Assembly (NCBI GenBank): GCA_016840465.1
Contig: JAEOSH010000001.1
Span: forward strand, 88,763 to 120,762
DNA: 32,000 bases
Direction of reading: 5' to 3'
DNA from: Candidatus Baldrarchaeum yapensis
GTDB taxonomy: Archaea; Asgardarchaeota; Baldrarchaeia; Baldrarchaeales; Baldrarchaeaceae
A program made the position numbers and the translations under genes. Numbering within the stretch: the stretch's first letter is position 1; each line of letters begins with the position of its first letter. Under the pieces are notes generated by a model. It had not been told where the DNA came from. It saw nothing but the letters and a program-made list of their open reading frames with translations, and made no database searches. Below, in pieces: positions 15,329 through 23,077 of the stretch.

Positions 15329-16225
15329 TTACTCCTTACTTACCATTTTTGATATCAGTTCCCACTGCCTATCGACCCATCTCTGTATTTCCTCTATATC
15401 CTCTCTCGTTAAGTGAGAAAATCTTCCCTGCAGCTTTAGGTACTCCTCGACAGGTAGCCTTTTTTCTGGATCCAGCAACGCCTTGCTGGGACCTGTTAAA
15501 CGGAATTTTCCGTCCTCAACTTCATATAGTACCCACATTCCAGTTCTCACCGCCAATCGTGATATTTTCACTGTTAATTTGGAATCAAATCTCCAACCTG
15601 GGGGGCATGGGGCAAGTATATGTATGTATCTGGTCGCGCCACGTTTTTCTTTCGCTTTTTTCACTTTTCTGAAAAGGTCATGCGGGTATCCACTTGTCGC
15701 CGTGGCGACATACGGTATATCATGAGCGATCATTATTCTTGGCATGTTCTTTTTGTGTTCACGCTTGCCGAGAATAGGAGTTGTTGTTGTTATAGCTCCG
15801 TACGGGGTTGCTCCACTTCGCTGGATGCCAGTGTTCATATATGCTTCATTGTCATAACATATGTAAATGAAATCTGTTTGCCTTTCGGCGGCTCCGGATA
15901 GAGCCTGAATGCCTATATCAACAGTACCCCCGTCACCCGCCCATACAAGAACCGTTGCGTCCTTACCTCTCGCCTTCAAGGCAGCAACTATACCTGATGC
16001 TGCCGCTGCTGCAGCAGCAAACGCTATATTTAGAACGGGGATTCCTATTGCGCTCTTAGGATAGAGTCCCATGAAAACGGACGTGCAACACGCTGGAACC
16101 ACCATTATGCTCTTCTTTCCTAGGGCTTTTAACACCCACCTAAGCGCCATTGTCGCACCACAACCGGGACAACTCGCATTACCTGGGTAAAAGTATTCTT
16201 CCAGAGGATACCTTTGTGCCGACAT
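15329..16225 (-). CDS. porB: 2-oxoacid (pyruvate-type):ferredoxin oxidoreductase beta subunit
   Basis: CPGCG, AGDGG TPP motif, YDNEAYMNTGIQRS, PCPPGW. Confidence 0.93.
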   Translation of the reverse strand: MSAQRYPLEEYFYPGNASCPGCGATMALRWVLKALGKKSIMVVPACCTSVFMGLYPKSAIGIPVLNIAFAAAAAAASGIVAALKARGKDATVLVWAGDGGTVDIGIQALSGAAERQTDFIYICYDNEAYMNTGIQRSGATPYGAITTTTPILGKREHKKNMPRIMIAHDIPYVATATSGYPHDLFRKVKKAKEKRGATRYIHILAPCPPGWRFDSKLTVKISRLAVRTGMWVLYEVEDGKFRLTGPSKALLDPEKRLPVEEYLKLQGRFSHLTREDIEEIQRWVDRQWELISKMVSKE

Positions 16226-16227
16226 TT

Positions 16228-17430
16228 TTAATCACCCTTAAGTCCGACCCATTCACAGATGAAACCTTCTTTTTCCTCCTCAAGTGCTTTAAATGCCCTC
16301 ATAAATAATTCAGCCTGCATATCTGGAGTAACGTCTCTTCCTCCGATTCCAACTATGAAATTCATTATTAATGGAGGATTCTTTTCACCGTAGAGCGCTG
16401 CGGCAATATCTGCAGCACTTATCCCGCAGTATCCATAACTCGCATTTCTATCGACTACTACCAGCACTTTTACTCTCCTTCCGATTCTTATGAAGTCCTC
16501 ATATGGAAAGGGCCTGTAAACTCTGAGTTTTACCGACCCGACTTGGTAACCTTGTTCTCTTAACATATCAACGACGTACTTTGCTTGAGCCGCGAGCGTT
16601 CCCATGGATACCATTACGACTTCAGCATCGTTTGTTCTATATTCCTCTACTAATGCTCCATGATATCTTCCGAACATTCTCTTGAAATCATCAGCAGCCT
16701 TTTTTATTTTATCTTTAGCTTTTAGCATTCCTACCTGCATGAGATATCTATATTCCATGTATCCGACTTGTGTGCCTACGGCTTCTGCTAGAACGATGTT
16801 CCCATGAGTGACGGGATTGTCCACGTCACTGATGTCAAACGGAGGCTCATACGGAGGTAAGTACTCTTCAACTTCCTTTTCGCTTAGTACGTGAACCGGT
16901 TGGTACGTATGACTTAGAAGGAATCCATCGCCACATACCATTGCTGGCATTCTCACCTCCGGATCCTCAGCAACCCGGTACGCCTGTATTATTGTGTCAA
17001 AGAACTCTTGGTTACTTTCAACGTAGAATTGAATCCAGCCAGTGTCCCGTTGTGATAGACTATCTATATGATCCGGCCATATATTCCATGGAGGCCCCAT
17101 TGCTCTATTTATAACCGCCATAACAATAGGGAGCCTCGCCCCCGCTGCCCAGTGAAGCATCTCATGCATATAGGCAAGTCCATGCGCGGAAGTTGCTGTA
17201 AACGCACGTGCTCCTGCTGCAGACGCGCCGATACATGCTGCCATTGCGCTGTGTTCGGACTCTACTCTCACGTACTCGCACTTCATTTCTCCCCTCTCTA
17301 TAAGTTCCGCTATTTTCTCGACAATCGATGTTTGAGGTGTTATAGGGTATGCCGCAACCACCTGTACCCTTGCCGCTTTAGCAGCATAAGCTGCGCTATA
17401 ATTCCCGGTGAGTATCATCACTTCTCCCAT
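16228..17430 (-). CDS. porA: 2-oxoacid:ferredoxin oxidoreductase alpha subunit
   Basis: YPITPQT, ESEHSA, TATSAHGL, DGFLLSH, GGRDVT. Confidence 0.93.
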   Translation of the reverse strand: MGEVMILTGNYSAAYAAKAARVQVVAAYPITPQTSIVEKIAELIERGEMKCEYVRVESEHSAMAACIGASAAGARAFTATSAHGLAYMHEMLHWAAGARLPIVMAVINRAMGPPWNIWPDHIDSLSQRDTGWIQFYVESNQEFFDTIIQAYRVAEDPEVRMPAMVCGDGFLLSHTYQPVHVLSEKEVEEYLPPYEPPFDISDVDNPVTHGNIVLAEAVGTQVGYMEYRYLMQVGMLKAKDKIKKAADDFKRMFGRYHGALVEEYRTNDAEVVMVSMGTLAAQAKYVVDMLREQGYQVGSVKLRVYRPFPYEDFIRIGRRVKVLVVVDRNASYGYCGISAADIAAALYGEKNPPLIMNFIVGIGGRDVTPDMQAELFMRAFKALEEEKEGFICEWVGLKGD

Positions 17431-17723
17431 TCTACTACCTCCCTCTCAACTTTTATTGCGTCATATGGGCACTCCTCAACACACACAAGACAGCCCTTGC
17501 AATAATTGTAGTTTATCCTTGGTCCTTCATCCTTCGAAAAAACTATAGCGTTCTCCGGACAATAAGTCCAACACATGCCACACTTTTTGCACTTCTCATA
17601 ATTAATGACAGGGCGTTCAGCCCTCCACCGACCCGTCATTCCCATAGATCCAGGGCCTGGCCTCGAGAGTGGTGTTGGCGGAATTTCCTTCATCCACTCA
17701 TAGTTCTTCACAACAATTTTCAA
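17418..17723 (-). CDS. porD: 2-oxoacid:ferredoxin oxidoreductase delta subunit (2x[4Fe-4S])
   Basis: TGRWR..P, CKKCGMCWTYCP, CKGCLVCVEECP; TTG start overlaps the porC stop. Confidence 0.92.
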   Translation of the reverse strand: MKIVVKNYEWMKEIPPTPLSRPGPGSMGMTGRWRAERPVINYEKCKKCGMCWTYCPENAIVFSKDEGPRINYNYCKGCLVCVEECPYDAIKVEREVVEWEK

Positions 17724-18338
17724 GGGGACATCACCACCGTCTTTTCATACGCGATACGTGCGGCCTTTGCATTAAGTTCTGCAAGTTCTCCCTCCCATTC
17801 CTTTAATATTACGGATAGCACTGATTCTATCCTGACTATCCCGGTGGCCTTGGAAAAGGCGCCCAGCATTGGTGTAATCCCCGGGTGAGGAAAACCCTCA
17901 CCCTTTGAGGACAGGAATCCCAGCAACCTTCAATCCTAGATCCAAAGCTATTTTTGTGGCGTCTACTGTCGCTATCTTGTACTTTGGGGGAATTCCCATC
18001 TCTAAAAGTTCCTCTGGTTGTTTTGATATGTTAACTACCAGCATTCCCCCATTCCTCAAGCCTTCTAACACGTTTACCATACCGAGTAATGAGGGGTCCA
18101 GTACGACAACTACATCTGGGTTGTAAATTTGGCTACGTAGGTGGATTTTTTTGGAAGATATCCGTGTAAAGGCAGTTACTGGTGCACCTCTCCGCTCCGC
18201 TCCAAAGAACGGAAATGCCTGTACATCCTTATATCCATCGATATATGCGGCCTTTGCGAGAAGTTCTGCTGCTGTTACAGCGCCCTGACCTCCTCTTCCA
18301 TGCCAGCGGACCTCTATAATCTCCACATTTGAGTTCAT
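17720..18338 (-). CDS. porC: 2-oxoacid:ferredoxin oxidoreductase gamma subunit, two exons: join(18338..17905, 17876..17720), 196 aa after splicing
   Basis: HGRGGQG, FGAERRGAPV and VDATKIA in exon 1; MLGAFSKATG and NAKAARIAY in exon 2; spliced junction reads GIPVLN/TPMLGA; 434+157=591 nt. Confidence 0.9.
17877..17904 (-). other. 28-nt BHB-type intron in porC pre-mRNA
   Basis: mRNA sense: UGU-CCUC-AA|A-GGGUGAGG-GUUUU-CCUCACCC-GGGG-AU|U-ACA, a canonical hBHBh'. The intron contains the in-frame UGA and shifts the frame. Confidence 0.9.
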
Positions 18339-21367: not shown

Positions 21368-21455
21368 TGGTGCGGGGGGTGGGATTTGAACCCACGCAGG
21401 CCTACGCCACGGGATCCTCAGTCCCGCGCCTTTGACCTAGCTCGGCCACCCCCGC
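21368..21455 (-). tRNA. tRNA-Leu(GAG), intronless, CCA encoded
   Basis: Acceptor GCGGGGG/CCCCCGC, anticodon arm CGGGA-CU GAG GA-UCCCG, long variable arm, GUGGG-UUCAAAU-CCCAC; TATA at 21483-21490. Confidence 0.96.
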
Positions 21456-22885: not shown

Positions 22886-22979
22886 GCCGCCGTAGCTCAG
22901 TTGGTAGAGCGCCGGACTGCCGTTTAGGTCCGGAATCGTAATCCGGCGGTCCCGGGTTCAAATCCCGGCGGCGGCTCCA
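22886..22979 (+). tRNA. tRNA-Thr(CGT) with 18-nt intron at position 32/33 (22918-22935)
   Basis: GCCGCCG/CGGCGGC, U73, CCA; strict BHB with CCGG 22912-22915/22930-22933 and bulges ACT and AAT; spliced loop CU CGU AA. Confidence 0.95.
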
Positions 22980-22987
22980 TCACCCGT

Positions 22988-23077
<90 letters not shown>

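Follow-up and report, generated by a model that had tools for sequence, protein, structure and literature searches.

A putative BHB intron in the porC coding sequence of an Asgard archaeon, with candidate counterparts in a sister genus and in pcm

Background

BHB introns in archaeal mRNAs have been confirmed for cbf5 in some Crenarchaeota (PMC2738675) and for HVO_1309 in Haloferax (PMC7714728, PMC10485636). Other archaeal mRNA introns of this type were predicted and are unconfirmed (PMC2738675), and a review from 2023 expected further archaeal mRNAs that are spliced by the tRNA endonuclease (PMC10485636). Among the Asgard archaea, non-canonical tRNA introns have been described in Atabeyarchaeia, Freyarchaeia and Jordiarchaeia (PMC11291895; bioRxiv 10.64898/2026.10.13.758758). 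Both papers cover tRNA genes only, and the preprint does not contain the word 'mRNA' and mentions protein-coding genes solely as gene neighbourhoods (bioRxiv 10.64898/2026.10.13.758758). In eukaryotes, the cytoplasmic splicing of HAC1 and XBP1 by IRE1 together with RtcB or Trl1 combines protein-only cuts at stem-loops with ligation of the RtcB type and alters both the reading frame and the C-terminal end of the protein.

The locus described here is located in a window of 32,000 nucleotides, which is the whole stretch of DNA that was analyzed and belongs to contig 56 of the genome of Candidatus Baldrarchaeum yapensis. This genome, a 2.27-Mb draft of 100 contigs with a completeness of 96%, is the only one that represents its family. 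From the sequence data, we estimate a probability of about 0.85 that 28 nt at positions 17904-17877 of the window represent a spliced archaeal BHB intron inside the porC coding sequence. A preliminary description of this DNA had named cbf5 as the classic archaeal mRNA intron, which is right, with HVO_1309 of Haloferax as a further case (PMC10485636). It had named no BHB intron in a ferredoxin oxidoreductase, and our literature search, which was incomplete, likewise revealed no earlier report of BHB introns in porC, pcm, a ferredoxin oxidoreductase or an Asgard protein-coding gene.

Compared with the known systems, the porC intron shares with that of cbf5 (Aeropyrum, Sulfolobus; Watanabe 2002, Yokobori 2009, PMC2738675) the BHB type and the position in a protein-coding gene. 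The cbf5 intron, which occurs in hosts with an (alpha-beta)2 endonuclease, is likewise of small size and scattered distribution, and its gene is frequently annotated in error as split or frameshifted. On the other hand, cbf5 encodes an RNA-modification enzyme of Crenarchaeota and carries a relaxed motif (PMC10485636), whereas porC encodes an energy-metabolism enzyme of an Asgard archaeon and displays a strict hBHBh' motif. In Haloferax volcanii, the HVO_1309 mRNA is cleaved by the archaeal splicing endonuclease and its ends are rejoined (PMC7714728, PMC10485636), as proposed here for porC; this is a single case in a euryarchaeon with an alpha2 enzyme, and the gene is unrelated to porC. The Asgard tRNA introns have the motif, the size range of tens of nucleotides, the enzymes and the phylum in common with the porC intron, and they were likewise gained repeatedly in individual lineages at sites where the exon can supply half of the motif (PMC11291895; bioRxiv 10.64898/2026.10.13.758758). 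Since the host of the porC intron is an mRNA, its splicing must, unlike that of tRNA introns, also preserve the reading frame. The resemblance to HAC1/XBP1 splicing, which depends on IRE1 instead of EndA/TSEN and is regulated by stress, is one of mechanism and not of family.

Results

Genetic organization of the por operon

The porC gene is the first of a four-gene operon, porC-porD-porA-porB, that encodes a 2-oxoacid:ferredoxin oxidoreductase on the minus strand of the window (15329-18338). The operon comprises the following features:

17905..18338, minus strand: porC exon 1, starting with ATG 18338-18336; its terminal AA occupies the first two positions of the 5' bulge
17877..17904, minus strand: candidate 28-nt BHB intron AGGGUGAGGGUUUUCCUCACCCGGGGAU, carrying the in-frame UGA 17900-17898
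17720..17876, minus strand: porC exon 2, consisting of T, 51 codons and TGA
17418..17723, minus strand: porD, delta subunit with 2x[4Fe-4S] (Pfam Fer4 and TIGR02179 PorD_KorD), TTG start
16228..17430, minus strand: porA, alpha subunit (POR_N and PFOR_II)
15329..16225, minus strand: porB, beta subunit, TPP-binding (TPP_enzyme_C)

Exon 1 of porC matches positions 1-123 of the 173 positions of the Pfam profile PF01558 POR (E 1.2e-30) and scores 171.6 bits with TIGR02175 PorC_KorC against a cut-off of 81.1, and exon 2 (frame 17875-17723) covers positions 129-173 of the same Pfam profile (E 6.2e-07). The gamma subunit thus exceeds the curated cut-offs (PF01558, TIGR02175) and is accompanied by delta, alpha and beta subunits in the same operon; according to these profile matches the enzyme is a four-subunit 2-oxoacid:ferredoxin oxidoreductase of the pyruvate/2-ketoisovalerate family. 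The best NCBIfam match of porA, PorA_Arch with 485 bits, remains below its cut-off of 550. With respect to porB, both the VorB-type beta model NF008818 (457) and the PorB model NF008819 (408) exceed the cut-off of 405, and POR and VOR are therefore indistinguishable at this locus, so that the porC product may be a subunit of VOR rather than POR.

Upstream of the porC ATG an SD-like GGTGAT is present at 18350-18345 (minus strand), and an SD-like GGTGGTGA at window positions 17730-17737 (minus strand) precedes the TTG start of porD. The stop codon of porC overlaps this TTG (TTGA), as had been noted before. Since the SD-like motif of porD (GGUGGUGA) is located 8-15 bases upstream of the TTG start, porD need not rely on ribosomes coming from porC, and its initiation may be independent of porC translation. 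The ideas of the preliminary description that porD translation would depend on splicing and that splicing is a possible control point are therefore weaker than the intron reading itself.

An insert with the geometry of a BHB intron

When the porC frame is read from ATG 18338 in the unspliced sequence, it ends after 146 amino acids at UGA 17900-17898. Removal of the 28 nt yields an ORF of 196 amino acids that reads ...GIPVLNTPMLGAFSK... and terminates at TGA 17722-17720. The break in the frame coincides with a complete splicing motif, whose elements are as follows:

17868..17918, minus strand: whole hBHBh' splicing motif with exon helix, central helix, two bulges and intron helix
17913-17911 / 17875-17873, minus strand: exon helix h, UGU/ACA, 3 bp
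17918-17916 / 17870-17868, minus strand: extension of the exon helix, AUU/AAU, across the internal loop CC 17915-17914 / CC 17872-17871
17910-17907 / 17882-17879, minus strand: central helix H, CCUC/GGGG, 4 bp with one G-U pair
17906-17904 and 17878-17876, minus strand: bulges AAA and AUU, 3 nt each
17903-17896 / 17890-17883, minus strand: intron stem h', GGGUGAGG/CCUCACCC, 8 bp
17895-17891, minus strand: intron hairpin loop GUUUU

The CCUC strand of the central helix consists of bases of exon 1, and its partner GGGG is contributed by the intron. If both bulges are cut behind their second base, the exons meet in the codon AA/T for Asn and the motif VLNTPMLGA is restored. The preliminary description had proposed that porC is broken into two frames by a canonical hBHBh' motif and that the unspliced message ends at an intron UGA; the coordinates and the pairing were reproduced base for base, as was the truncation to 146 amino acids.

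For the 76-nt surroundings, RNAfold calculates a minimum free energy structure (-32.2 kcal/mol) in which the intron stem and the 5' bulge are formed and the central helix is two pairs longer (GUCCUC/GGGGAU, 6 bp) at the expense of the 3' bulge. The constrained hBHBh' fold with two bulges reaches -31.4 kcal/mol, in which the exon-exon helix is extended by further pairs; it is only 0.8 kcal/mol above the minimum, and the two conformers are therefore essentially iso-energetic. The short exon helix h of 3 bp is a point against the intron reading, as is the small energetic preference for the longer central helix. Among the 4.54 million strand positions of the genome, 53 sites equal this motif in quality (H of 4 bp, h of 3 bp or more, intron stem of 8 bp or more, length not above 40), which puts the chance that one of them coincides in exact register with the frame break at about 1e-5 per position.

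Two other explanations of the hairpin were discarded. A terminator or attenuator was rejected with respect to the missing U-tract after the stem and the location inside a conserved domain. An origin by copying was dropped, as no significant second copy of the intron is present in the genome; the hairpin is no repeat element.

The spliced product in comparison with homologues

The junction codon specifies Asn in 117 of 118 full-length homologues, and none of the 118 contains an insertion at this position. Across the junction the spliced product aligns without gaps both with the orthologue GIPVLNTPILGAFSK in locus L005 and with an uninterrupted paralogue of the same genome, and the insert is missing at this site from the orthologues and the paralogue. 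This homology is the strongest argument for the intron. It supports the Asn junction and the 196-aa product that had been postulated earlier, and the comparison with intronless orthologues that had been suggested as a check gave the expected gap-free result.

Across 400 surveyed genomes of the phylum, interrupted porC orthologues were found, among the matches listed, only in this genome and in a sister genus, and no other genome examined carries an intron at the site of the window. The closest named PorC homologues belong to Thor-, Hermod-, Sif- and Lokiarchaeial genomes. A search of metagenome contigs, a collection that may exclude the records of this genome, gave no match to the exact spliced or unspliced porC junction and none to a degenerate pattern of an insertion at the same site, and a search for related loci in genome contigs returned distant POR genes only and no near relatives. 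In protein record P0121, the same porC protein begins with V in place of M. Another genome (G339:C7:5842-6354) has a porC orthologue that contains a single in-frame TAG; it has no extra length and hence no insert, and its TAG could be a sequencing error, the mark of a pseudogene or a recoded stop.

These comparisons also bear on translational bypassing of the T4 gene 60 type, by which ribosomes would take off at GGG 17903-17901, skip 19 nt, land at GGG 17881-17879 and continue in the frame of exon 2. The GGG codons for take-off and landing match, the former is followed immediately by a stop codon, and a hairpin begins at the take-off site. The GGG repeat, however, follows automatically from the BHB pairing, and the bypass product VLKGITPM would place K-G-I where 117 of 118 homologues have Asn and 0 of 118 an insertion. 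Furthermore, the porC inserts of the sister genus described below lack matched take-off and landing codons and yet obey the BHB rule. Bypassing is not known to have been described in archaea, and we regard this explanation as very improbable.

Even less credence is given to an assembly or sequencing artefact, according to which the 28 nt would be absent from the DNA of the organism. The genome is a metagenome-assembled draft in 100 contigs, a single sequence variant is on record, and the available assemblies may come from the same or related samples. Nevertheless, a stretch of 660 nt that includes the insert is identical in a JGI metagenome contig, and nine contig records (NCBI, ENA, Logan, JGI), generated with different assemblers, contain the truncated ORF. 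An artefact would also not produce a perfect BHB in splice register, and analogous inserts occur in many other genomes, closed ones among them.

A second candidate intron site in porC of the sister genus

The sister genus (genomes G001, G002 and G004) has no insert at the porC site of the window, where VVNTPMLGAF is continuous, but its porC genes are interrupted elsewhere, between FPFFGAE and RRGAP (FGAE/RRG), at the following loci:

L034 (G001): 34-nt insert, frame shift +1
L035 (G002): 35-nt insert, frame shift +2
L016 (G004), minus strand: 33-nt insert, frame shift 0

The in-frame insert of 33 nt contains a TAG stop codon. All three inserts fold as GCAG-AAA-[stem]-CUGC-ANA, and the canonical cut restores FGAERRGAP exactly in each case. 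Moreover, their stems exhibit compensatory changes (AGGCGAC/GUCGCCU vs AGGCAGU/ACUGCCU). The porC intron of the window exists as one sequence variant in the databases, and covariation can therefore not be demonstrated for this intron itself; it is seen in the sister introns, namely at the porC site of the sister genus and in pcm.

A candidate BHB intron in pcm across Asgard families

A second candidate for an mRNA intron was identified in the same genome (G000) in pcm, the gene of protein-L-isoaspartate O-methyltransferase, at G000:C78:18122-18153 (= L122:1122-1153), which lies outside the window. The insert comprises 32 nt with the structure CACC-ACA-[11-bp stem]-GGUG-ACA. Its removal restores GQTISAPH/MVALM, and the exons match positions 2-59 and 61-208 of the PCMT profile. 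The conserved TISAPH/M motif is interrupted in 14 genomes from six Asgard families (those named are G000, G002, G003, G004, G010, G015, G017, G020, G025, G030, G039, G047 and G055; further loci L125-L128, L131, L132, L134 and L136-L140), and the site is uninterrupted in G008, G022 and G044. A strict BHB is formed in 13 of the 14 interrupted genes, and that of G015 has one stem mismatch.

The 12 tabulated pcm inserts have lengths of 29-32 nt. In all 12, pairing is present at the first six positions of the intron helix, with two to four pair types at each. Additionally, two lineages carry the synonymous exon change GCG>GCA together with the compensating intron change GGCG>GGUG (CGCC/GGCG vs CACC/GGUG). 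As judged from these alignments, the covariation is a signature of selection on RNA structure and not of decay.

The pcm data are relevant to the view that porC is truly split or decaying as a result of a hairpin insertion, with the enzyme formed from two polypeptides that assemble non-covalently or replaced by gamma paralogues. The pieces would then comprise 146 amino acids and about 49-68 amino acids, depending on initiation at ATG 17867 or TTG 17926. Gene callers annotate two ORFs, among them the JGI annotation with POR fragments of 146 and 49 amino acids, a TTG or ATG start codon is available for the second piece, and the genome contains three other, uninterrupted POR-gamma paralogues:

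G000:C84:19251-19628: POR-gamma paralogue
G000:C1:72065-72334: POR-gamma paralogue
G000:C76:34474-34752: POR-gamma paralogue

The closest of these is 52% identical to porC exon 1. With three further gamma subunits in the genome, some activity of this kind could persist even if splicing were blocked. Against a split gene, the break is located inside a near-invariant motif, and the geometry and register of the insert restore exactly this motif. A strong coding signal is retained in both exons, with a hexamer coding score of exon 2 of +26 in the proper frame and negative values in the shifted frames; the genes downstream in the operon are intact, and no repeat element accounts for the hairpin. 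Inserts of this type have been maintained in porC and pcm in several genera and families, their stems covary and their effects on the frame differ, which would not be expected of a decaying gene. Accordingly, we consider a split or decaying porC unlikely.

Genome-wide search for BHB motifs

The genome was scanned for motifs with a 4-bp central helix, 3-nt bulges and an intron stem whose minimum length was set to 6 or 4 bp, and restoration of an ORF and hexamer coding potential were required as filters. The scans yielded 1745, 259 and 340 matches, and controls with cuts shifted by 1-2 nt yielded approximately 1710-1750, 270-300 and 370-405, respectively. There is no excess over the controls, and the genome-wide scan alone therefore proves nothing. 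Most of the matches represent gene boundaries with a ribosome binding site and a start codon, and porC and pcm were singled out solely by the ranking of stem quality. Below these top-ranked sites the scans carried no statistical power, and more relaxed introns may have been missed.

Splicing enzymes and interrupted tRNA genes of the host

The genome encodes two EndA (tRNA_int_endo) paralogues of 193 and 195 amino acids, with ORFs in G000:C56 (L117:1462-2043, minus strand) and G000:C53 (L118:1195-1782, plus strand). One of them is closest to the crenarchaeal chains 3p1z_B/3ajv_B as best PDB matches, and the other is divergent with 5x89/1a79 as best PDB matches; the two are putative alpha and beta subunits. 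An RtcB ligase is also present (609 bits). ARAGORN detected only 24 tRNA genes in this 96%-complete genome, 11 of them with introns, several of which occupy non-canonical positions, and probably about half of the tRNA genes escape recognition because of their interruptions. This heavy interruption matches reports on some Asgard lineages (PMC11291895; bioRxiv 10.64898/2026.10.13.758758). The cbf5 gene of this genome is uninterrupted.

The window itself contains three tRNA genes, two of which include extra sequence:

22886-22976, plus strand: tRNA with about 18 extra bases in the anticodon loop (intron)
22988-23077, plus strand: tRNA adjacent to the previous one, with a poor fit in the acceptor and D arms
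21368-21455, minus strand: tRNA Leu-GAG, uninterrupted

The start that ARAGORN predicts for the tRNA at 22988-23077 is 18 nt earlier than that of Rfam, which suggests a non-canonical 5' intron.

The genome also carries eukaryote-like genes of the actin family at G000:C7:22542-23660 (minus strand, 440 bits, full-length) and G000:C70:1317-2393 (minus strand, 312 bits; both Pfam Actin). Its position in the Asgard archaea agrees with these actins, with the closest named PorC homologues and with the composition of its phylum set. A search of the genome for profilin gave no match, and the control genomes were equally without a match.

Discussion

The restored motif, the insert-free orthologues, the enzymes of the host and the sister introns all support the earlier proposal that the porC mRNA contains a BHB intron. 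Under this proposal, the pre-mRNA would fold with the CCUC/GGGG helix between the bulges AAA and AUU, flanked by the intron hairpin and the exon-exon helix. EndA would cut after 17905 and after 17877, and RtcB would then join the exons to create the codon AA/U (Asn) and a protein of 196 amino acids; RtcB would probably also circularize the 28-mer intron. The predicted junction in the spliced RNA is ...CCUGUCCUCAA/UACACCAAUG... (17905 to 17876), and the predicted tryptic peptide of the product is VAGIPVLNTPMLGAFSK. Only the spliced RNA would specify a complete gamma subunit, since translation of the unspliced RNA is predicted to give the 146-aa truncation without the last quarter of the POR domain. 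Very probably, therefore, porC needs RNA splicing to make its protein.

On the basis of the genomes compared, the porC intron is specific to its lineage, and it is most simply viewed as a tolerated insertion, located where the sequence by chance allows the BHB fold. Together, the two sites in porC and the one in pcm indicate that there are at least three BHB-intron sites in protein-coding genes of this part of the Asgard archaea. We lean slightly towards the broader view that the tRNA-splicing machinery of Asgard archaea routinely splices a small number of protein-coding mRNAs as well. Introns in porC would then have been gained at least twice, at two sites and within one order, and the pcm intron at TISAPH/M would have been kept or regained in at least six families. 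Frame-changing, protein-only splicing of mRNA, following the logic of HAC1/XBP1, would already exist in the archaeal lineage next to the eukaryotes, and intron retention could gate the production of enzymes.

If the main reading is correct, porC would add a gene of central metabolism to the two accepted cases cbf5 and HVO_1309, and porC and pcm together would extend such introns to several genes and families of the Asgard archaea, in which they were previously reported for tRNA only. Genes of this kind are annotated as truncated or split ORFs, and metabolic reconstructions can therefore wrongly call POR or PIMT broken. Moreover, porC would provide a testable case for the repeated gain of introns in coding sequences at sites that are able to form half a BHB, and it would connect splicing of the tRNA type with the restoration of reading frames in mRNAs of the lineage closest to the eukaryotes.
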